Assembly (NCBI RefSeq): GCF_000745315.1
Contig: NZ_JQNQ01000001.1
Location: 3,135,127 to 3,167,126 of the forward strand
Direction of reading: 5' to 3'
Source of the DNA: Salegentibacter sp. Hel_I_6
GTDB taxonomy: Bacteria; Bacteroidota; Bacteroidia; Flavobacteriales; Flavobacteriaceae
DNA length: 32,000 nt
Of this stretch, positions 2,152 through 31,006 are shown piece after piece (the stretch's first letter is position 1; each line of letters opens with the position of its first letter). A program made the translations under genes and the position numbers. The notes below the pieces were generated by a model. The model ran no database searches. It was not told where the DNA came from and saw nothing but the letters and a program-made list of their open reading frames with translations.

Positions 2152-3144
2152 TCACTTACTCAATTCCTGTAACTTCTCCAGTGCCTTTAAAGCTTTCCCT
2201 GAATTTATAGATTCCCGGGCAGTTTCAAAACCTTCTTTGACACTAATTTGTTTCGCCGTGGCAATCGCCATTCCTGCGTTGGCGCAAACCACGTTGTTTT
2301 GTGCTTTAGTGCCTTTTCCTTTTAATATATTCACGAAAATTTCTGCAGAACTTTCTATAGAACCGCCACCGGCAATTTCTTTCTGTTTTAGGGTTTCCAC
2401 TCCAAAATCTTCCGGACTTAGCATGCCTTCAGAATTATTAGAAATGGTTTTCGTATTTCCGGTAAGGGAAATTTCATCATAACCATCCAAAGCATGCAAA
2501 ATGGTAAAATTCTTATCGGTGTTTTGATATAAGTAACCATACATTCTGGCCAGTTCCAGGTTAAAAACTCCTACAAGCTGATTTTGCGGAAAAGCAGGAT
2601 TTACCATTGGCCCAAGCATATTGAAAAAAGTCTTTACCGCAAGCGACTTCCGAATTGGCGCGACGTTTTTCATTGCCGGGTGGAATAGGGGAGCGTGCAG
2701 CACGCAAATTCCTGCTTCAGCGATACATTTTTCAAGAAATCCGGCATCATTACTAAATTTAATTCCCAGGCTTTCCATAACATTAGAACTACCACTTACC
2801 GAAGAAACTCCGTAGTTTCCGTGTTTCGCCACATTTACTCCCGCTCCTGCCGTTACAAAAGAGGAAGTGGTAGAAATATTAAATGTATTCTTGCCATCTC
2901 CACCGGTTCCGCAGAGATCTATAGGGTTATAAGCACTTAAATCTATGGCTACACAAAGTTCTAAAAGCGCATCCCGAAATCCCTCCAGCTCTTCTATAGT
3001 AATGCTTCGCATCATATAAACCGTGAGAAATGCGGCGATCTGGCTTTCGTTATATTCTCCATTGGAAATACTGAAAAGCGCCTGCTTCGCTTCATCTTTG
3101 GAGATGGTTTCGTGATTAATAAGCCTGTTTAGTAGTTCTTTCAT
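2152..3144 (-). CDS. trpD: anthranilate phosphoribosyltransferase
   Basis: ORF 2152-3159 with CGTGGDGKNTFNIST and KHGN motifs. The ATG at 3159 is the ATGAC complement of a GTCAT repeat end. I prefer the ATG at 3144 (MKELLNRLINHETISKDEAKQ...). Confidence 0.9.
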   Translation of the reverse strand: MKELLNRLINHETISKDEAKQALFSISNGEYNESQIAAFLTVYMMRSITIEELEGFRDALLELCVAIDLSAYNPIDLCGTGGDGKNTFNISTTSSFVTAGAGVNVAKHGNYGVSSVSGSSNVMESLGIKFSNDAGFLEKCIAEAGICVLHAPLFHPAMKNVAPIRKSLAVKTFFNMLGPMVNPAFPQNQLVGVFNLELARMYGYLYQNTDKNFTILHALDGYDEISLTGNTKTISNNSEGMLSPEDFGVETLKQKEIAGGGSIESSAEIFVNILKGKGTKAQNNVVCANAGMAIATAKQISVKEGFETARESINSGKALKALEKLQELSK

Positions 3145-3154
3145 ATCTAATTTT

Positions 3155-3178
3155 GTCATTCCCGTGAAGACGGGAATC
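3155..3178 (+). repeat. GTCAT-type hairpin element gtcattcccgtgaagacgggaatc
   Basis: Perfect 8-bp stem attcccgt/acgggaat with loop gaag, read directly. Confidence 0.8.
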
Positions 3179-3209
3179 TGTTTAATTGGAATTTTTCTTA
3201 CTTCTCAAA

Positions 3210-3233
3210 GATTTCCGCCTACGCGGAAATGAC
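3210..3233 (-). repeat. GTCAT-type hairpin element (minus strand gtcatttccgcgtaggcggaaatc)
   Basis: Perfect 8-bp stem atttccgc/gcggaaat. 23/24 identical to 5779-5802. Abuts the trpG stop codon. Confidence 0.8.
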
Positions 3234-3799
3234 TATGATTCTACCCAATTCTGAATCATTTTTTTCCCATCTGGAGTCAATACCGATTCTGGGTGAAACT
3301 GCACTCCACGCACATCAAACTGGCGGTGACGAAGAGACATGATTTGCCCTTTTTCATCGTAGGAAGTAGCTTCCAGAGAATCGGGAAGTTCTTTTAAAAC
3401 TACCCAGGAATGGTAGCGGCCTACCTTCATTGTTTTTGGGAGATCTTTAAAAAGTGGTTCATCGTCTACACAAAGATCCATCGTGGTGGCGATGCCGTGA
3501 TAAACCGATTCCAGATTGCCCAAGGTCCCGCCGAAAACTTCACCTATGGCTTGTTGCCCGAGACACACGCCCAGGATGCTTTTTGAAGAAGCATATTTTT
3601 CTATGATAGGTTTTAATAATCCGGCTTCACTGGGAATTCCGGGGCCTGGAGAAAGCAGAATCTTATCATATTTCTCCACGTCTTCCAGCTCTAACTGGTC
3701 GTTTCTTATAACCGTGACCTCACAATCTAATTCTTCTAAATAATGTACAAGGTTGTACACAAAAGAATCGTAATTATCTATAACTAATATTTTTTTCAT
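3233..3799 (-). CDS. trpG: anthranilate synthase component II (glutamine amidotransferase)
   Basis: 188 aa with the class-I GATase motifs ILGVCLGQQ (nucleophile Cys) and GVQFHPES. Lies between trpE and trpD. Confidence 0.9.
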   Translation of the reverse strand: MKKILVIDNYDSFVYNLVHYLEELDCEVTVIRNDQLELEDVEKYDKILLSPGPGIPSEAGLLKPIIEKYASSKSILGVCLGQQAIGEVFGGTLGNLESVYHGIATTMDLCVDDEPLFKDLPKTMKVGRYHSWVVLKELPDSLEATSYDEKGQIMSLRHRQFDVRGVQFHPESVLTPDGKKMIQNWVES

Positions 3800-3840
3800 T
3801 CTACCTGGTGTAAAATTCTGTTTTTAATACTAAAAGTTGC

Positions 3841-3938
3841 GTCAATCTGTCCCGAAGCTTCGGGATCGTTTCAGATTCTAATATTTTAGATCTCCGAATA
3901 AATTTCGGAGCAAGCTCTGAAATAAATTCAGGATGACG
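3841..3938. repeat. three hairpin elements in the trpE-trpG spacer (3841-3868, 3891-3910, 3917-3938)
   Basis: gtcaatctgtcccgaagcttcgggatcg (tcccgaagcttcggga palindrome); tctccgaataaatttcggag; ctgaaataaattcaggatgacg. The last is a 22-mer identical to 16820-16841 and to the reverse complement of 15387-15408. Confidence 0.8.
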
Positions 3939-3953
3939 TATTGTTTTTATTCC

Positions 3954-5348
3954 TTATATATCTTCAGCGATATCCAATGCCTTGGTTAGCGCCCCTAGTT
4001 TATTGTAAACTTCCTGTAATTCGTTTTCTTCTACAGATTCTGAAACAACACCTGCGCCGGCTTGATAATGTAATTGATGATCTTTACTTACAAAAGATCT
4101 AATGATAATGGCGTGGTTAAAATTTCCGTGGAAATCCATAAACCCTATTGCCCCGCCGTAGGCATCACGATTTACATTTTCGTATTTTTCTATCAGCTTC
4201 ATCGCACTATGCTTAGGCGCGCCGCTTAAAGTTCCCGCCGGAAAAGTATCTGCTACCACCTGCATTGTAGGTGTTTTTGGATCTTTGGTGCCGGTAACTT
4301 TGCTTACTAAATGGATCACGTGGGAGAAAAACTGGATTTCTCTATATTTTTCCACTTTTACATTATTACCGTGTCGGCTTAAGTCGTTACGAGCCAGATC
4401 AACCAACATTACATGTTCGGCATTTTCCTTTTCATCGGCGGCAAGTTTTTTGGCTAGTTCAGCGTCTTCCTCATCATTTCCGGTACGTTTAAAAGTTCCG
4501 GCTATTGGATGGATTTCTGCCTGCCCGTCCTGAACCACCAGTTGGGCTTCAGGCGAACTTCCAAATATTTTAAAGTTTCCGTAGTCAAAATAGAAAAGGT
4601 AGGGCGAAGGATTTACGCTGCGTAAAGCGCGGTAAACATTGAATTCATCTCCCTTGAATTTCTGAGAAAATCTGCGCGAAAGCACAATTTGAAAAACGTC
4701 ACCACGATAGCAGTGCTTTTTCCCTAGGCTTACATTTTCCCTGAATTCTTCGTCGGTGAGGTTAGAAATTGGTTCCTGCTGACGTTCAAAATTATAGGTC
4801 GCGAAATTTTTGACTTTTATCAGTTGCTCGATTTCAGCGATCTTTGAATCGGTATCATAGCTATGATCAAAAATATAAGCTTCATTATTAAAATGATTTA
4901 TGGCGATAATATTTTGATAAACCGCGTAATAAATATCCGGAAGTTTAAGATCACCATTTCGTTTTTTAATCTCTAAATCTTCAAAATACCGAACTCCGTC
5001 ATAAGCGATATAGCCAAAGAGTCCGTTATTGATAAATTTAAAATCAGAATCTTCAGTTTGGAATTGTTTTGAAAATTCCTGGATTTGCTGGGGCACGTTA
5101 ACTCCAGGAGTGATCTCTGTTGTTTTTTTACTTCCGTCAGGAAAAACTTCGGTAATCACTTCGTTTTGAATCTTAATAGAAGCGATAGGATTACAGCATA
5201 TATACGAGAAACTATTGTCGTTGGCGTGATAGTCACTACTTTCCAGCAAGAGACTGTTAGGATATTTGTCCCGAACTTTTAAATAAACACTCACCGGTGT
5301 AATGGTATCTGCTAGGAGTTTTTTATGGGTGGTTTTTAGTTGGTACAT
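3954..5348 (-). CDS. trpE: anthranilate synthase component I
   Basis: 464 aa with LLESS near the N-terminus and C-terminal chorismate-binding motifs (GTLSGAPK, YGGAIGF, AGAGVV). First biosynthetic gene of the operon. Confidence 0.92.
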   Translation of the reverse strand: MYQLKTTHKKLLADTITPVSVYLKVRDKYPNSLLLESSDYHANDNSFSYICCNPIASIKIQNEVITEVFPDGSKKTTEITPGVNVPQQIQEFSKQFQTEDSDFKFINNGLFGYIAYDGVRYFEDLEIKKRNGDLKLPDIYYAVYQNIIAINHFNNEAYIFDHSYDTDSKIAEIEQLIKVKNFATYNFERQQEPISNLTDEEFRENVSLGKKHCYRGDVFQIVLSRRFSQKFKGDEFNVYRALRSVNPSPYLFYFDYGNFKIFGSSPEAQLVVQDGQAEIHPIAGTFKRTGNDEEDAELAKKLAADEKENAEHVMLVDLARNDLSRHGNNVKVEKYREIQFFSHVIHLVSKVTGTKDPKTPTMQVVADTFPAGTLSGAPKHSAMKLIEKYENVNRDAYGGAIGFMDFHGNFNHAIIIRSFVSKDHQLHYQAGAGVVSESVEENELQEVYNKLGALTKALDIAEDI

Positions 5349-5361
5349 GAATTATTCTTTT

Positions 5362-5401
5362 GTCTTTCCCGCGAAAGCGGGAGTCTATTTAGTATGTTTC
5401 T
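5362..5401. repeat. left copy of the direct repeat flanking the GIY-YIG gene (includes hairpin gtctttcccgcgaaagcgggagtc)
   Basis: gtctttcccgcgaaagcgggagtctatttagtatgtttct aligns with 5717-5760. Shared blocks are gggagtct, ttt, tat and tttct. Confidence 0.6.
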
Positions 5402-5408
5402 GTTTGAG

Positions 5409-5705
5409 TTATTTAAATCTTACAGTCAAATCTTCCCAATCGGGGTTGAAATCGTTTATCAGATTTATTTTCCAGAGTCGATTCCATTTTTTAAGTTGTT
5501 TTTCCCTTTTAATCGCCAACGACGGATATTCGAATTTTTCATAATATACTAGTTTATTAAGTCGGTATCTACTGCTAAAACTTTTTAGGTTTCGATTTCT
5601 ATGTTGATATAATCTTTGTTTCAGGTTTCTTGTAATCCCAATATATAGTGTTCCATATTTACGATTTGTAATGATGTAAACGTAATATTGGTAGTCTGTA
5701 TTCAT
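5409..5705 (-). CDS. small GIY-YIG (URI-domain) nuclease family protein
   Basis: 98 aa. YVYIITNRKYGTLYIGITRNLKQRLYQH gives the GIY...YIG pair followed by a conserved Arg. Size and layout match stand-alone COG2827-type proteins. Confidence 0.85.
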   Translation of the reverse strand: MNTDYQYYVYIITNRKYGTLYIGITRNLKQRLYQHRNRNLKSFSSRYRLNKLVYYEKFEYPSLAIKREKQLKKWNRLWKINLINDFNPDWEDLTVRFK

Positions 5706-5716
5706 AATTTATTTCA

Positions 5717-5760
5717 GTCACTCTCTTAAAAATGGGAGTCTTTTTTAATATCGTATTTCT
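5717..5760. repeat. right copy of the direct repeat flanking the GIY-YIG gene
   Basis: gtcactctcttaaaaatgggagtcttttttaatatcgtatttct. See 5362-5401. Confidence 0.6.
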
Positions 5761-5778
5761 CAATTCTGTGTTTTTTGA

Positions 5779-5802
5779 GATTTCCGCCTTCGCGGAAATG
5801 AC
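5779..5802 (-). repeat. GTCAT-type hairpin element (minus strand gtcatttccgcgaaggcggaaatc)
   Basis: Perfect 8-bp stem. Differs from 3210-3233 by one nucleotide in the loop. Confidence 0.8.
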
Positions 5803-5814
5803 AGAAAACTTCAT

Positions 5815-5845
5815 AAAAAAAGGCTTGTCGTGAGACAAGCCTTTT
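5815..5845 (-). terminator. intrinsic terminator of the trp attenuator
   Basis: Minus strand reads AAAAGGCUUGUC-UCAC-GACAAGCC followed by seven U. The stem 5818-5829/5834-5845 is a perfect 12 bp (8-bp GC-rich core). It lies 29 nt after the leader stop codon. Confidence 0.8.
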
Positions 5846-5874
5846 GTATGAGATTATACTATAGCGATGTTACT

Positions 5875-5931
5875 TCACGACGTTTGACGTAAATTTTTCC
5901 ACCACCAGGTATTTGCTGTAATTGTTTTCAT
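5875..5931 (-). CDS. trpL: trp operon leader peptide, 18 aa, MKTITANTWWWKNLRQTS
   Basis: My reading of the minus strand: ATG 5931-5929, three consecutive TGG codons at 5907-5899, TGA at 5877-5875. Too short for the ORF track. An in-frame upstream ATG at 5964-5962 would give 29 aa (MKANNWHLLYFMKT...) with a fourth Trp. Confidence 0.75.
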   Translation of the reverse strand: MKTITANTWWWKNLRQTS

Positions 5932-5969
5932 AAAATATAATAAATGCCAATTATTGGCTTTCATTGCTT

Positions 5970-6000
5970 CAAAGATAGAAAGCTCTTTTAAATAAACAAG
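5970..6000 (-). promoter_or_regulatory. candidate promoter of the trp leader transcript
   Basis: Minus strand carries TAtcTTTG (5977-5970), matching the Bacteroidetes -7 consensus TAnnTTTG. A partial -33 element cTTG (6000-5997) lies 19 nt upstream. Confidence 0.4.
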
Positions 6001-6070: not shown

Positions 6071-6571
6071 TTAGAATTTCAACTCAATATTTAAATCGAA
6101 ATTATCGTAAATCGTTTGATCTCCAAGTCCGCTGAAAAAGCTACCGGAATTGTATTTCACGTTATATTTAGAACGATCTATTGTTAATTTGGTAGTAGCA
6201 GTATTATTGTTGTAATCTAAATCGAAAGTTACCGGATGAGTGTTTTCTTTAATTGTTAGATCTCCAACCACACCATAAGTGCCATCATCTTTTTTGGCTA
6301 CGCTGGTAATTACCAGTTTGGAAGTTGGATGGTTATCTACTCCAAAGAAATCATCTGAATTTAAGTGACCTTCCAATCCTGCTTTATCGTCTCCTTTAAG
6401 ATCTGTTACAGTAATTGTGGTCATATCCATTACAAATTCGCCACCTACTATTTCATCGTTTTCAAACTTGAATTTCCCATCTTTTAGATCGATGGTTCCT
6501 GAGTGTGATCCTAAAACTTTCTTTCCTTTCCAGGCGATATTACTGGCCTGGGTATTTATTTGTTTTTCCAT
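6071..6571 (-). CDS. YceI-like polyisoprenoid-binding protein, no signal peptide
   Basis: 166 aa, collinear with and highly similar to ORF 6620-7198 (DDFFGV, KLVITSVAKK, GVVGDLTIKE, LTIDRSKYNV, ELKF) but lacking its N-terminal hydrophobic leader. Confidence 0.85.
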   Translation of the reverse strand: MEKQINTQASNIAWKGKKVLGSHSGTIDLKDGKFKFENDEIVGGEFVMDMTTITVTDLKGDDKAGLEGHLNSDDFFGVDNHPTSKLVITSVAKKDDGTYGVVGDLTIKENTHPVTFDLDYNNNTATTKLTIDRSKYNVKYNSGSFFSGLGDQTIYDNFDLNIELKF

Positions 6572-6619
6572 AATAATTCAATTTTTCTTTTTCAATAGCA
6601 ATTTTCTTCCCGGTACAGT

Positions 6620-7198
6620 TTAGAATTTTAATTCTACGTCCAGTTCAAAATTATCGTAGATAGTTTTGTCTCCAAGGTTATCAAAGAAACTTCCAGAACC
6701 ATAACGTACATTGTACTTAGAGCGGTCTATAGTAAGTTCTGTAGAAGCTGAATTTTTACTCCAATCTAAATCAAAAGTTACTGAATGAGTGTCTTCTTTT
6801 ATAGTAAGATCTCCAACTACACCGAAAGTATTATCACTTTTCTTGGCTACGCTGGTTATTACCAGTTTAGAATTAGGATATTTTTGAACTCCAAAGAAAT
6901 CATCTGACTTTAAATGTCCTTCAAGCTTACCTTTGTCCTCTCCTTCTAAGTCGGTAACTGTGATAGAAGTCATATCTATTACGAACTCTCCTCCTTTTGG
7001 TTCATTATCTTCAACGATAAAATGTCCTTCTTTAAAATCGATCGTTCCATAATGAGATCCGGTTACTTTTTCACCTTCCCATTGTACTGAACTTTCTTTT
7101 ACATCAATTTTCTTTTCCTGTGCGTTTACGTTGGTAAAAGATAAAAGAGATACAATAACTGTAGATGCAAGGGCACCTCTAAATAGATTCTTTTTCAT
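6620..7198 (-). CDS. YceI-like polyisoprenoid-binding protein with signal peptide
   Basis: 192 aa. The N-terminus MKKNLFRGALASTVIVSLLSFTNVNAQ looks like a signal peptide. The rest is a YceI-type lipocalin-like domain. Confidence 0.85.
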   Translation of the reverse strand: MKKNLFRGALASTVIVSLLSFTNVNAQEKKIDVKESSVQWEGEKVTGSHYGTIDFKEGHFIVEDNEPKGGEFVIDMTSITVTDLEGEDKGKLEGHLKSDDFFGVQKYPNSKLVITSVAKKSDNTFGVVGDLTIKEDTHSVTFDLDWSKNSASTELTIDRSKYNVRYGSGSFFDNLGDKTIYDNFELDVELKF

Positions 7199-15386: not shown

Positions 15387-15465
15387 CGTCATCCTGAATT
15401 TATTTCAGGATCTAAAATGTCGATAATCAGAACAGGTTAGAAACTGAAACAAGTTCAGCTTGACG
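15387..15465. repeat. two hairpin elements (15387-15412 plus-oriented GTCAT type; 15444-15465 minus-oriented)
   Basis: cgtcatcctgaatttatttcaggatc is the exact reverse complement of 16816-16841. ctgaaacaagttcagcttgacg has a ctgaa/ttcag stem. Confidence 0.8.
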
Positions 15466-16632: not shown

Positions 16633-16646
16633 ATATGTTATATTTT

Positions 16647-16870
16647 GTCATTTCCGTCTCGATAAAAAATCGGGATAAACTGCGGCGGAAATCTATTTTT
16701 TAGTTTTTTAATTGTCATTGCGAGGCACGAAGCAATCTGTCAGATTGTGGTAATTTAAGTTGAAGATTACTTCACTCCGTTCGTAATGACGATCCTTATT
16801 GATATGAACGACTTAGATCCTGAAATAAATTCAGGATGACGATAAACCAGTTTCCCGAAACAAATTCGGG
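16647..16870. repeat. cluster of six hairpin elements filling a 253-bp spacer
   Basis: 16647-16693 gtcatttccg[tctcgataaaaaatcgggataaact]gcggcggaaatc (nested); 16714-16737 gtcattgcgaggcacgaagcaatc; 16765-16791 minus-oriented gattacttcactccgttcgtaatgacg; 16816-16841 gatcctgaaataaattcaggatgacg; 16852-16870 tcccgaaacaaattcggga. A further aattgc-ttc-gcaatt hairpin follows at 16873-16887. Confidence 0.8.
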
Positions 16871-16885
16871 ATAATTGCTTCGCAA

Positions 16886-17419: not shown

Positions 17420-18445
17420 TTACAAAGTTTTGAACTTTCTGCCCGCGGCAAAGCTTTCCAATAATAAATAAAATTGAAATCCGAACAATACGGCGGCTAT
17501 AACTAAATGAAGAGGTTGGGAGGTAAACGGAAATTCAAAATTATACATTGCTATTCCTGTGGCAATCTCCAGAAAAATTAGCAGCATGACCCAGTTTATC
17601 TTCCCGAATTTAAGCTGAAGTTTTCGGTTTTTCCACCAGAGTACAAGGTTTACAAGTAGGACCAGGATAGAAAAGCTACGATGTATATAAAAATTTAAAT
17701 CAGGATTGGCGAGCCAAAGTTCTTTCGCATCATAACCTAGCATTTTTACCTGTTCATCTACTAATTGTCGTACTTGCGTTCCTAAAACAACTTGAATGAG
17801 TGTTAAGGCAACTGCCAGGATCATTAAATTTTTAAAGCTGTTATTATGAATTTTATCCTTTACTTTTTCTTCGGCAAGGAAAAGTAAATAAAGTAGCAGG
17901 GCCACAATTACCAGCGCCATTACCATATGGATGGTAATTCTAACCGGCGATAAGACCGAATAAACTACGGTTGCGCCAAGCCAGGCCTGGAATCCCATAA
18001 GAAAAACCGATAGCCACGAGAGCAAAGTAATTCGTTTTCTTTTTTTCCATTTTTTAAAGGAAAGCACGGCCATTATGAGCACAGCAAAGCCAGCTAAAGC
18101 TCCGGCAAGCCTGTTTATATATTCAACCCACGTATGCAGTGGATTAAAAATGGCGTAATCGTGTTTCTCATAATTTCTCCAGTCTGCTTCGGAATAGTTT
18201 TCTGCAGAAGTAAAATCGGTTTCGGCAACTTTTAGGGTTTCATCAACGATAATTACCTGGCCTTTTTCATACTCGCGGTTAGCCTGAAACTCCAGTTCAG
18301 AAACTTCTGTTGGAGGAATGTAATAACCGAAACATTTTGGCCAATCCGGGCAACCCATTCCGGAGCCCGTCATTCTTACCACGGCACCGGCAACAATAAC
18401 CAGGTAAACCAGGATCAGGGAAATTTTAACCGATTTTCTATACAT
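17420..18445 (-). CDS. ctaA: heme A synthase (COX15/CtaA family)
   Basis: Multi-span membrane protein with VRMTGSGMGCPDWPKCFG. The track start (GTG 18487) lies inside the heptamer array. I prefer the ATG at 18445 (MYRKSVKISL...). Confidence 0.85.
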   Translation of the reverse strand: MYRKSVKISLILVYLVIVAGAVVRMTGSGMGCPDWPKCFGYYIPPTEVSELEFQANREYEKGQVIIVDETLKVAETDFTSAENYSEADWRNYEKHDYAIFNPLHTWVEYINRLAGALAGFAVLIMAVLSFKKWKKRKRITLLSWLSVFLMGFQAWLGATVVYSVLSPVRITIHMVMALVIVALLLYLLFLAEEKVKDKIHNNSFKNLMILAVALTLIQVVLGTQVRQLVDEQVKMLGYDAKELWLANPDLNFYIHRSFSILVLLVNLVLWWKNRKLQLKFGKINWVMLLIFLEIATGIAMYNFEFPFTSQPLHLVIAAVLFGFQFYLLLESFAAGRKFKTL

Positions 18446-18478
18446 ATTTTTAAGTTGAAAGTTAAAAACATAAACTTC

Positions 18479-18541
18479 ACTACTCACTACTCACTACTCA
18501 CTACTCACTACTCACTACTCACTACTCACTACTCACTATTC
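18479..18541. repeat. heptanucleotide tandem repeat, 9 copies of ACTACTC (last copy ACTATTC)
   Basis: Read directly: eight perfect ACTACTC units plus one variant. On the minus strand these are GAGTAGT units. The array lies between the cca-like stop (18529-18531) and the ctaA start. Confidence 0.95.
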
Positions 18542-19953
18542 ACTGATAATCCCAATTCTCTTCCTTTCTTAAGCATTAAATTCCTCGCAGCTTCATGTTC
18601 GTTTGGAATTTCCCCTTCAAGAATTGCTTCTTTAATGGTGTCTTTAATAATACCGATTTCACGGGAAGGTCTTATATTAAAAGTTTCCATAATTTCTTCA
18701 CCGGTAACCGGAGGTTGGAAATTACGAACGTGGTCACGTTCTTCCACCTCTTTCATTTTGGTGCGGACCACTTTAAAATTATTATGGTATTTCTTAAATC
18801 GATTCGGATTTTTCGTGGTGATATCAGCTTCGCAAAGCGTCATTAAATCTTCAATATCTTCCCCAGCGTCAAAAATAAGTCGGCGTACGGCAGAATCGGT
18901 TACGTCGTTGTCCACAATAGCAATTGGCCGCGAACTCATTAAAACCAATTTCTGCACATATTTCATCTTGTCATTTAATGGGAGACGAAGCCGTTTAAAT
19001 AGTTTAAAAACCATTTTTGCGCCAACAAACTCGTGCCCGTGAAAAGTCCACCCAATTTTCTTGTGAAACTTTTTAGTAGGAGCCTTACCAATATCATGCA
19101 ATAAAGCAGCCCAGCGCAGCCAAAGATCACCAGTATTTTCCGCGATATTATCTACCACTTCTAAAGTATGCCAAAAATTATCTTTGTGCTTTTGGCCTTC
19201 AATTTCGTCAATACCTTCCAGAGCAGTAAGCTCCGGTAAGATGATAGGAAGTAATCCGGTTTTATGTAGTAGCGAAAAGCCTTTTGAAGGTTTTTTGGCC
19301 AGCATTATTTTATGCAGCTCGTCGGTAATTCTTTCTTTAGAAATAATCTTGATGCGTTTCTTATTTCTTGTAATCGCATCTAAAGACTCTTTTTCAATCT
19401 TAAAATTTAGCTGTGTCGCAAAGCGAATAGCACGAAGCATTCGCAATGGATCATCAGAATAAGTAATATTGGGATCCAGTGGGGTTTTGATGATTTTAGA
19501 ATTTAGATCCTCAATTCCGTCAAAAGGATCTAAAAGATTTCCGAAGTTATCTTCATTCAAACCAAGCGCCAGTGCATTTATGGTGAAATCGCGCCGATTT
19601 TGGTCGTCTTCCAAACTGCCGTCTTCCACAATAGGTTTGCGACTATCTTTTTGATAACTTTCTTTACGTGCGCCCACAAACTCGATTTCCATATCAAAAG
19701 CACGCAGCATTGCCGTACCATAGTTTTTGAAAACCTGGACTTTGGGTTTGTGCGGAAGTATTTCTGCAACTTTTTTCGCAAGTTCAATGCCGCTTCCTAC
19801 CGCAACAATGTCAATATCTTTGGGTTCTCCTCGCTGTAAGATATGATCGCGAACAAAGCCTCCAATAACATAGCTTTCAAGTTTTATTTCCTCCGAGGCC
19901 TGGGTAATGACCCTGAATATATTGTGCGATAAAGCGCCTTTATAATTCTTCAC
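18529..19953 (-). CDS. CCA-adding enzyme / poly(A) polymerase-family tRNA nucleotidyltransferase with HD domain
   Basis: 474 aa. GGFVRD, DIDIV and RRDFTINAL motifs in the nucleotidyltransferase head. HDIGK in the C-terminal HD domain. Confidence 0.85.
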   Translation of the reverse strand: MKNYKGALSHNIFRVITQASEEIKLESYVIGGFVRDHILQRGEPKDIDIVAVGSGIELAKKVAEILPHKPKVQVFKNYGTAMLRAFDMEIEFVGARKESYQKDSRKPIVEDGSLEDDQNRRDFTINALALGLNEDNFGNLLDPFDGIEDLNSKIIKTPLDPNITYSDDPLRMLRAIRFATQLNFKIEKESLDAITRNKKRIKIISKERITDELHKIMLAKKPSKGFSLLHKTGLLPIILPELTALEGIDEIEGQKHKDNFWHTLEVVDNIAENTGDLWLRWAALLHDIGKAPTKKFHKKIGWTFHGHEFVGAKMVFKLFKRLRLPLNDKMKYVQKLVLMSSRPIAIVDNDVTDSAVRRLIFDAGEDIEDLMTLCEADITTKNPNRFKKYHNNFKVVRTKMKEVEERDHVRNFQPPVTGEEIMETFNIRPSREIGIIKDTIKEAILEGEIPNEHEAARNLMLKKGRELGLSVNSE

Positions 19954-20045: not shown

Positions 20046-20417
20046 TTATAGCACAATTCTTTTATGGTCTAGTAAATCCTTGTGGAAGTTTGCTAATGCT
20101 AACCTGTTTTCTGAAACCTTTAAATAATTAATACACTGCGCTATATGCTTATCGTGAATATTATCAACAGATTTTATTTCTAAAATTATTTTATCAAAAA
20201 GAATGAAATCAGCATAAAACTTGTGACTAAGAATAGTTCCTTTATAAGAAACTGAGTATTCTTTTTCTCTTTCAAAAGGAATATTCAGCGAACTAAACTC
20301 CAGTTCTAATGCATCTTTATAAACTATTTCAGAAAATCCACTGCCTAAATAATTATATACATTGAATAATGCTCCAACAATGGCATAACTTTCGTCTTTA
20401 TATATAATATCGGCCAT
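20046..20417 (-). CDS. GxxExxY protein (PD-(D/E)XK nuclease-like small protein)
   Basis: 123 aa. GFSEIVY matches the GxxExxY signature, and ADFILFDKIILEIK resembles the D...E.K nuclease-core motif of this family. Confidence 0.85.
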   Translation of the reverse strand: MADIIYKDESYAIVGALFNVYNYLGSGFSEIVYKDALELEFSSLNIPFEREKEYSVSYKGTILSHKFYADFILFDKIILEIKSVDNIHDKHIAQCINYLKVSENRLALANFHKDLLDHKRIVL

Positions 20418-20443: not shown

Positions 20444-21022
20444 CTATTTCCTAATCACTTTTACCTTCCCATCGTTACTTAATTTAATGATGGCGGAGGG
20501 TTTAGCCGATTTTTTATTTTTTTGCAAATTTACTACATAGTCCACACCCTCTAAAATTTCGGGGCTAATTTCGTCGAAAGATCCGGGTGTTTTTTCACCG
20601 CTAATGTTGGCCGAGGTAGAAACGATAGGTTTTCGAAATCTTTTTGCCAAATCATTGCTGAATTTATCTTTGGAAACTCTAATTGCCAAAGAATTATCGG
20701 CGGCGATCAGGTTTTCGGCTACGCGAATAGGATCGTCGTAAATAATTGTAGTAGGTTTTTTCGCAAATTTGAGAATATCGTAAGCTACTTCAGGAACATC
20801 TTCTACAAATTGATTCAGCATTTTATAGTCTGAAACCAGGCAAATAAGCGCCTGACTTTCCTTACGTTTTTTAAGCGCATACACTTTTTCTACGGCTCCA
20901 GCATTTGTGGCATCACAGCCAATTCCCCAAACCGTATCGGTAGGGTAGAGTATAAGTCCGCCACGTTTTAGGGTTGCAAGGGCGTTTTGCATTTCGGTTT
21001 TAATATCTTCCATAAAGGACAT
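20444..21022 (-). CDS. tsaC: L-threonylcarbamoyladenylate synthase (YrdC/TsaC family)
   Basis: 192 aa. LILYPTDTVWGIGCDA and SANISG motifs of the YrdC/Sua5 domain. Overlaps the upstream glycosyltransferase gene by 23 nt. Confidence 0.85.
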   Translation of the reverse strand: MSFMEDIKTEMQNALATLKRGGLILYPTDTVWGIGCDATNAGAVEKVYALKKRKESQALICLVSDYKMLNQFVEDVPEVAYDILKFAKKPTTIIYDDPIRVAENLIAADNSLAIRVSKDKFSNDLAKRFRKPIVSTSANISGEKTPGSFDEISPEILEGVDYVVNLQKNKKSAKPSAIIKLSNDGKVKVIRK

Positions 21023-30589: not shown

Positions 30590-30643
30590 CCATAAAATGT
30601 ATAATATATATTGAATAATGTATAATTTCAGTTGTTTGAAATC

Positions 30644-31006
30644 ATGAAAACTGACTTAATTAAACGTTCCAATGTTTTTGCGCATAAATGTGTGAAACTA
30701 GCAATAAATCTTCCAAAAAATAAATTAGGAGGCCATATTGAGGGTCAGTTAATTAGATGTAGTACTTCTGTTGCAGCGAATTACAGGGCCGCATGTTTAG
30801 GGCAATCAAAAAAAGCTTTTATTTCAAAATTGGGAATAGTAATTGAAGAAGCTGATGAATGTATTTTCTGGATAGAATTCGCGAAGGATGAAGATCTGCT
30901 AAATGAGAAAGATTCAAAAGAATTGATAATTGAAGCCAAAGAGTTGACATCGATCTTTATCGCGTCTAGAATCACCGCGGTAAGAAACCAAAATTCCGGA
31001 AAATAA
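30644..31006 (+). CDS. four-helix-bundle protein (formerly 23S rRNA intervening-sequence protein family)
   Basis: QLIRCSTSVAANYRAA...SKKAFISKLGIVIEEADECIFWIEF matches the family pattern (QL.RS..SI.AN..E......DF..K......E..E...W). The track start is TTG 30632; the ATG at 30644 is preferred. Confidence 0.8.
   Translation: MKTDLIKRSNVFAHKCVKLAINLPKNKLGGHIEGQLIRCSTSVAANYRAACLGQSKKAFISKLGIVIEEADECIFWIEFAKDEDLLNEKDSKELIIEAKELTSIFIASRITAVRNQNSGK

Follow-up and report, generated by a model that had tools for sequence, protein, structure and literature searches.

We analyzed a 32,000-nucleotide stretch of the Salegentibacter sp. Hel_I_6 genome (contig NZ_JQNQ01000001.1, positions 3,135,127 to 3,167,126), referred to here as the window and numbered from its first letter. 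On its minus strand the window carries a tryptophan (trp) operon in which a small gene, ssn (5409-5705, minus), stands between the attenuator of the leader and trpE and is followed in order by trpE, trpG, trpD, trpC, trpF, and the start of trpB. Open reading frame (ORF) and Pfam searches showed the ssn product to be a single-domain GIY-YIG protein of 98 amino acids (aa), which we assign to the Ssn nucleases, and hairpins that resemble the published Ssn-related motifs (SRMs) lie on both sides of the gene. We consider it probable that the ORF is an Ssn-family nuclease accompanied by its cognate SRMs, and that the two form a selfish, horizontally exchanged cassette which resides in the trp operon and is most likely cotranscribed with it.

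The Ssn nucleases were described by Chenal et al. (Nat Commun 2025; PMC11893778), and the core of our finding is therefore not new. According to that report, SsnA of Neisseria meningitidis is a 94-aa single-domain GIY-YIG protein (CDD cd10448) that binds its hairpin only as single-stranded DNA (ssDNA), and only one strand of it, and cleaves to the 5' side of the hairpin, a few nucleotides away. It is inactive on double-stranded DNA (dsDNA) and on RNA, and mutating Y6, Y17, or E64 kills the enzyme. The Neisseria Transformation Sequence (NTS) is the founding member of the SRMs. Across phyla, 42% of Ssn homologues have SRMs on both sides, and the association of nuclease and hairpin was demonstrated biochemically for four homologues. 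The NTS-ssnA-NTS layout was likened to an insertion sequence, with mobility not shown. Two questions were left open: the role of Ssn outside Neisseria, and whether the motif-gene-motif unit is a mobile element (PMC11893778).

The ssn product carries the catalytic motif of SsnA

The ssn protein matched Pfam GIY-YIG (PF01541, E = 3.8e-17) over residues 6 to 81 and no other domain. Its predicted catalytic residues, Y10, Y21, and E68, were conserved in all 8 Salegentibacter orthologues. Their spacing (11 and 58 residues) was identical to that of Y6, Y17, and E64 in N. meningitidis SsnA, whose residue identities we took from PMC11893778 for a comparison of spacing. Salegentibacter homologues located between leader and trpE were 91-94% identical to the window protein, and homologues from Alphaproteobacteria, Patescibacteria, Omnitrophota, and other groups were 52-60% identical. 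An SRM-flanked homologue from Rhizorhabdus, a genus named as SRM rich (PMC11893778), was 56% identical (L025, one of the numbered comparison loci; E = 4e-31).

When the PDB was searched by sequence, the ssn protein found a weak match to UPF0213 protein EF2693 (1ywl_A; E = 0.0026, 21 bits), and we take it that ssn and the UPF0213 or YhbQ-like proteins probably belong to the same superfamily and to different subfamilies. Among orthologues of the window group, the ratio of nonsynonymous to synonymous divergence (dN/dS) was 0.06-0.24; therefore, intact ssn copies encode a selected protein. The 32-kb window contains only this one ssn-type gene.

Inverted hairpins nearly identical to the NTS bracket ssn

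Upstream of the gene, in sense relative to ssn, lies the SRM TGTCATTTCCGCGAAGGCGGAAATCTCA (5776-5803, minus; 44.1 bits and E = 4e-8 against the covariance model [CM] introduced below). It starts 11 nucleotides (nt) past the T run of the attenuator terminator and folds as ssDNA with a dG of -9.1 (z, -4.7). Downstream, in antisense, lies TGTCTTTCCCGCGAAAGCGGGAGTCTAT (5361-5388, plus; CM, 37.7 bits), which fits the published SRM pattern and whose outer end and the trpE ATG are 12 nt apart. Both SRMs are within 500 bp of ssn, one on its 5' side and the other on its 3' side, and as an inverted pair they are 79% complementary over 29 nt. Since an intact sense SRM stands upstream and an antisense SRM downstream, ssn is primarily bracketed by inverted hairpins. 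The spacer between trpG and trpD contains a second such arrangement lacking a gene, a doublet whose upstream half is a sense SRM (3207-3234, minus; CM, 41.3 bits) and whose downstream half is an antisense SRM (3154-3181, plus; CM, 44.9 bits) that again fits the published pattern. All four intact window SRMs share the form GTC-A/T-8-bp stem-GAAG-stem-C, with ssDNA folding energies of -7.4 to -9.1 kcal/mol (z, -3.5 to -5.2).

The published degenerate pattern matched the window twice, at 5361-5388 and 3154-3181, compared with 0.04 matches in shuffled sequence. Because its strictness excludes the local sense-type copies, we built the CM from 23 local SRMs taken from the window and eight Salegentibacter loci. 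Their consensus, TGTCATTCCCGCGAAGGCGGGAATCT, is essentially the same as the Neisseria NTS consensus, CGTCATTCCCGCGMAVGCGGGAATCYRG, and the SRM at 5776-5803 differs from the latter by one compensated base pair. In the alignment of the 23 copies, 95% of stem cells were paired and 5 of the 8 pairs showed compensatory changes.

The locus thus resembles the Ssn/NTS system in its single-domain GIY-YIG protein of about 95 aa, in a hairpin that is nearly the NTS (GTCATTCCCGCG-loop-CGCGGGAATC) and conserves the 5' GTC and the C following the stem, in motifs that flank the gene on both sides, and in gene-less copies in nearby spacers. It differs in its host, a marine member of the Flavobacteriaceae, and in its setting within a biosynthetic operon behind a leader-peptide attenuator. 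The window motifs also have compensated stem changes (TTTCCGC in sense, CTCCCGC in antisense).

No Rfam family scored above threshold for the window hairpins. Separately, FtrB (Francisella sRNA B, RF02748) gave subthreshold matches of 24-27 bits (gathering score, 66) on the four intact SRMs, spanning 3140-3196, 3181-3259, 5340-5422, and 5751-5831. The FtrB model may contain an SRM-like hairpin.

ssn appears to be gained, moved, and lost among the trp operons of close relatives

The best matches to ssn in reference genomes were all linked to trp genes. In five Salegentibacter species, Flagellimonas, and Algibacter, ssn occupied the leader-trpE spacer. In S. flavus, S. sediminis, and a metagenome-assembled genome (MAG) (L006-L008), it lay between trpG and trpD, where the window has its gene-less SRM doublet, and in Leeuwenhoekiella and three MAGs it lay between trpB and trpA. 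A fourth spacer, between trpD and trpC, held ssn in one metagenomic trp operon. We compared 80 metagenomic trp operons with TrpE proteins 71-98% identical to that of the window. Ten had ssn or a remnant of it, always within the operon and co-oriented with it, and 70 had none.

The leader-trpE spacer itself occurred in four states, one of which is the intact gene noted above. It was naked, with the terminator abutting trpE, in S. sediminis (L008) and in four metagenomic operons (L084-L087), and it held SRMs only in L006, L007, and L082. The last of these encodes a TrpE 97% identical to that of the window and carries the hairpins without ssn. Two metagenomic, Salegentibacter-like operons (L083, 3560-3745; L088, 4555-4745; TrpE 90-91% identical) retained only the C-terminal half of ssn, broken by frameshifts and stops, with a sense SRM and an antisense SRM still on either side. 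In S. flavus DSM 17794, the ssn copy in the trpG-trpD spacer (L007, 6001-6297) has a premature stop at codon 20 (TTA to TAA); because it is otherwise intact, we regard it as a recent pseudogene. Judged by these comparisons, ssn does not behave as a fixed trp gene; it behaves as one that has been gained, moved between trp spacers, pseudogenized, and lost among close relatives.

Might ssn nonetheless be a domesticated accessory gene of tryptophan synthesis, for example, a nuclease that acts at the spacer hairpins to process or stabilize the polycistronic trp mRNA? Such a role would fit its recurrence in the trp operons of several genera of Flavobacteriaceae, its invariable co-orientation, and its purifying selection; moreover, hairpins in sense orientation would be transcribed, and as RNA they fold stably. 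However, a gene that is missing from 70 of 80 related metagenomic operons and from L082, and decayed in L007, L083, and L088, is hard to see as an accessory of the pathway. Homologues of other clades also occupy unrelated loci, and N. meningitidis SsnA neither binds nor cuts RNA (PMC11893778). We therefore hold this explanation to be very unlikely.

ssn is less diverged than its neighbors and derives from several Ssn lineages

Divergence at third codon positions was 0.08-0.25 in ssn compared with 0.15-0.40 in the adjacent trpE, which trpG resembled, and the ssn value was significantly below the trpE value in 14 of 15 genome pairs. Between the window and S. maritimus, for instance, it was 0.08 for ssn and 0.39 for trpE (P = 1.7e-10). 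Overall, silent-site divergence of ssn was 2 to 5 times below that of trpE. Between the window and L002, nucleotide identity was 91-98% in ssn, as compared with mostly 78-91% in the neighboring genes. The simplest reading of these sequence comparisons is that exchange of the cassette between species postdates the divergence of the surrounding genes.

In neighbor-joining (NJ) trees, most trp-linked Ssn proteins fell into one clade that was substructured by spacer. L113 grouped with Flavobacteriales proteins that are not linked to trp, and L109 and L118 formed a deep, separate lineage. The hairpins beside the latter two genes belong to a different family, CGTCA-(C/G)CTGAAC...GTTCAG(C/G)-TCTC. 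Hence, nuclease lineage and hairpin type co-vary, as had been anticipated (PMC11893778). By their placement in the trees, the ssn genes of trp operons stem from at least three Ssn lineages in four spacers.

A classical free-standing GIY-YIG homing endonuclease of the I-TevI or Seg type, cutting a dsDNA target in trp and copied in by repair, would leave similar traces. The likeness to that life cycle is real: close relatives show empty, filled, pseudogenized, and relic states of one site, ssn is less diverged than its neighbors at silent sites, and the protein weakly matches the group I intron endonuclease model TIGR01453. That match, however, reaches only 19.5 bits against a cutoff of 56.05. 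The protein consists of a catalytic domain of 78 residues within 98 aa, whereas such endonucleases have about 200-250 aa with a C-terminal DNA-binding domain, and neither an intron nor an intein is present. Furthermore, several sites are occupied, four trp spacers as well as non-trp sites in other clades, and what these have in common is the hairpin rather than a dsDNA target. A homing endonuclease of this kind is thus a highly improbable explanation.

Two further hairpin families were observed in the window. The one with stems ATTGCGA...AGCAAT has the layout GTCA-hairpin-TC, often with nested loop inserts (1119-1176, 1990-2151, approximately 380-470, and 16713-16740). It fills the trpD-trpC, trpC-trpF, and trpF-trpB spacers and also occurs outside the operon, and the window holds no nuclease gene cognate to it. 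The other, with stem CGTCATCCTGAA-TTTA-TTCAGGATC, was found at 3800-3953 in the trpE-trpG spacer, at 15388-15412 (plus), and at 16816-16840 (minus); these gene-less copies may be orphan motifs of another Ssn, since their stem type is that of L109 and L118. An intergenic array at 16640-16880, in which all three stem families are represented, comprises about five GTCA-hairpin elements, including one TTTCCG-type copy with another hairpin nested in its loop (16647-16692).

The direct repeats at ssn are optional and are not a target-site duplication

The preliminary description of this DNA, made from its letters alone, had ssn bounded by imperfect direct repeats of roughly 40 nt and took the arrangement for an insertion into, or a duplication of, a resident hairpin element. 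The repeats are real and homologous, and they are unequal. The copy at 5361-5388 is intact, while that at 5716-5743 (plus) is a decayed antisense SRM (CM, 21.1 bits; E = 0.008) that is identical to the first at 18 of 28 positions and no longer folds into a hairpin (z, -1.0). That their likeness is homology and not chance follows from S. tibetensis (L004), where both antisense copies are intact (46-47 bits). The window, L001, and L004 alone had the upstream antisense copy; L002, L003, and L005 lacked it. We conclude that the direct repeat at ssn is optional and that the inverted pair is the constant feature. Antisense copies do flank the ORF as described, but the stronger feature, the intact copy in opposite orientation at 5776-5803, had been missed, and the Ssn family had gone unrecognized. 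What stands of the proposed insertion is an inserted cassette with GTC-hairpin elements; the repeats themselves are not a target-site duplication but a 28-nt nuclease recognition motif. The empty sites that the description had suggested seeking in relatives do exist (naked in L008 and L084-L087, hairpins without the gene in L082), and with them its own alternative, an ancient and fixed gene, fails.

Taken literally, flanking direct repeats would make ssn part of an insertion sequence (IS)-like element with a duplicated target. Hairpin copies in the same orientation do surround ssn in the window, L001, and L004. The missing upstream copies in L002, L003, and L005 argue against this explanation, as does the nature of the repeats, which are 28-nt structured motifs that also occur in gene-less arrays (L006, L007, and the trpG-trpD spacer of the window). 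Moreover, comparing the filled sites of the window, L002, and L004 with the naked site of L008, we saw no duplicated host sequence. We give an IS-like element very little credence.

Hairpins and ssn keep a fixed arrangement across phyla

We searched 80 homologous ssn loci from many phyla both with the CM, which was built only from Salegentibacter copies, and with an independent rule-based scan. CM matches were concentrated just upstream of the gene in sense and just downstream of it in antisense. By the rule-based scan, a sense SRM lay within 200 nt upstream in 49 of the 80 loci, an antisense SRM lay within 200 nt downstream in 48, and 40 loci had both. SRM density was 4.3 per kb in the ssn flanks compared with a background of 0.29 per kb, and orientation was biased 55:14 upstream and 53:17 downstream. 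ssn was co-oriented with both neighbors in 52 of 74 loci.

Not all of these loci are in trp operons. In loci of the Flavobacterium type (L020, L028, L046, L055, and L068), a gene of another Ssn clade lies between a gene for a large TPR protein and an rsmA/ksgA-like methyltransferase gene, often accompanied by SRM arrays. Each Ssn clade seems to have its own stable home locus.

The least tenable explanation is that coincidence placed generic REP-like or terminator elements beside the ORF: elements of several stem families do occur without ssn, in every trp spacer and in the array at 16640-16880, and some have T-rich tails on the antisense strand, but coincidence accounts neither for the 15-fold enrichment and strong orientation bias beside ssn, nor for the different stem families of different Ssn lineages (CCTGAAC type in L109 and L118), nor for the biochemical association cited above.

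The cassette lies behind a Trp-codon attenuator

Upstream of ssn, the operon begins with a promoter -7 box of the Bacteroidetes type, TATCTTTG (5970-5977, minus), found by a TAnnTTTG scan. The Bacteroid-trp leader RNA (RF01692; 5834-5951, minus) scored 68.3 bits in Rfam against a gathering score of 49, and it contains a leader peptide ORF, MKTITANTWWWKNLRQTS (5875-5931, minus), with three Trp codons (WWW) at 5899-5907. The attenuator terminator (5815-5845, minus) has the stem GGCTTGTC/GACAAGCC and the loop TCAC, followed by 7 T residues. Its GC stem (5822-5841) and T run (5815-5821) fold as RNA with a dG of -19.8 kcal/mol (z, -6.6). This folding confirmed it as a terminator; the terminator scan had not listed it, presumably because an A-T extension of the stem uses up the T run. 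The first biosynthetic gene downstream of the cassette is trpE (3954-5348, minus), for anthranilate synthase component I. With its WWW leader peptide and terminator, the window leader is a canonical member of RF01692; it differs in that the nuclease gene, and not trpE, comes first after the attenuator in the window and in some relatives. We had considered the upstream SRM as a part of the attenuator and dropped the idea, since in relatives whose site is naked this terminator is retained and immediately precedes trpE.

An in-frame ATG at 5962-5964, 11 codons upstream, would give a leader peptide of 29 aa (MKANNWHLLYFMKTITANTWWW...); since L001 has ATA in its place, the shorter form of 18 aa is more likely. 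Directly upstream of the trp promoter are two tandem YceI-like paralogues (6071-7198, minus), of which L005 has only one.

The preliminary description had placed the 98-aa GIY-YIG ORF at 5409-5705, co-oriented between attenuator terminator and trpE, and had seen no terminator between the ORF and trpE and no TAnnTTTG box in the 60-nt spacer before trpE. ORF, Pfam, and Rfam searches bore out the coordinates, and our minus-strand scans agreed on the signals: the terminator scan listed no terminator-like site from the attenuator (5815) to trpE (5348), and no TAnnTTTG occurred at 5349-5969, the box at 5970-5977 being the sole one on that strand up to 5977. A sigma-70 promoter scan found 9 sites where 8.7 were expected, which is chance level; such scans are uninformative in Bacteroidota, and we used the TAnnTTTG box in their place. 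Because ssn is co-oriented in the leader-trpE spacer, where no promoter or terminator specific to it is recognizable, the gene is most likely part of the trp mRNA.

Weighing the selfish-cassette reading

Several points weigh against the reading that ssn is an Ssn-family nuclease in a selfish, exchanged, and cotranscribed cassette. Membership in the Ssn family is argued from transitive homology and the hairpin motif rather than from a direct comparison with N. meningitidis SsnA (CAX49033.1) or CDD cd10448. The sense-type SRM copies miss the published pattern by one compensated pair (C-G to T-A). Cotranscription and tryptophan control are deduced only from missing motifs, and TAnnTTTG occurs 54 times in the window against 44.5 expected, which is not above chance, so that finding none across 600 nt counts for little. 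Nucleotide-level constraint within ssn is a possible alternative cause of the low silent-site divergence. Finally, the NJ trees were drawn from about 95 aligned residues and carry no support values. We nevertheless find the reading probable.

By analogy with N. meningitidis SsnA, the ssn protein would bind the hairpin in ssDNA and nick the DNA on the 5' side of the conserved GTC, a few nucleotides from it. As the upstream SRM is sense and the downstream SRM antisense, two cuts on opposite strands are predicted; both would fall in the outer linkers of the SRM-ssn-SRM unit, which are the 11 nt after the terminator T run and the 12 nt before the trpE ATG. Read-through of the Trp-codon attenuator would bring ssn into the trp mRNA, and ssn expression would be expected to rise on tryptophan limitation. 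As to a role in the cell, restricting or modulating the recombination of SRM-bearing ssDNA and spreading SRMs are both possibilities.

A bolder version holds that SRM-ssn-SRM is a true mobile element which moves or homes into spacers already bearing SRMs by way of nicks in ssDNA at its outer edges, with the trp operon as its niche in the Flavobacteriaceae and the Trp attenuator switching the nuclease on under starvation. In its favor are at least three Ssn lineages with their own stem families in four trp spacers, and an ssn gene younger than its neighbors. If it were true, starvation would trigger hairpin-directed ssDNA cleavage, exchange of cassettes, and spread of SRMs. We regard this version as doubtful, though less so than any of the explanations set aside above. 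In repeat and gene architecture only, the cassette also resembles the REP/REPIN system with RAYT (an IS200/IS605-like Y1 HUH protein), in which short extragenic palindromes with a conserved 5' tag form inverted doublets, inverted copies flank the cognate nuclease gene, and the ssDNA hairpin is the presumed substrate. The window enzyme, in contrast, is a GIY-YIG protein and not an HUH tyrosine transposase, and strand transfer is not known for Ssn.

Our literature search returned nothing relevant on a link between GIY-YIG proteins and trp operons in Flavobacteria. Within the searchable literature, to which the supplementary lists of PMC11893778 do not belong, three features appear to be unreported: residence behind a Trp attenuator, the repeated colonization of trp spacers in Flavobacteriaceae by several Ssn lineages, and a natural series of empty, filled, and decayed sites. 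With naked, SRM-only, intact, relocated, and decayed states, together with the exchange signal and the co-variation of nuclease and hairpin, both open questions about Ssn become testable, and culturable marine Flavobacteriaceae offer a setting in which to test Ssn mobility and function outside Neisseria. Lying behind a Trp-codon attenuator, the nuclease gene is predicted to be expressed under a simple physiological switch. For annotation, many genes labeled "GIY-YIG nuclease family protein," along with unexplained intergenic hairpins in the operons of Bacteroidota, become readable as Ssn/SRM pairs.

Other small elements in the window

Two small genes unrelated to ssn were observed. One (20046-20417, minus), downstream of an ORF at 20444-21022 on the same strand, encodes a 123-aa GxxExxY protein (TIGR04256, E = 1.5e-34); GxxExxY proteins are a small, sporadic, nuclease-like family that is often multicopy in Bacteroidota. 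The other, also small and sporadic (30632-31006, plus), encodes a 124-aa four-helix-bundle protein of the "23S rRNA intervening sequence protein" family (TIGR02436) and is inserted between a Holliday-junction-resolvase-like gene and def. In addition, a heptanucleotide tandem repeat, TCACTAC (9.7 copies, 98% matches), at 18477-18544 covers the annotated start of the gene at 17420-18487 and the end of the gene at 18529-19953; slipped-strand variation is possible there.

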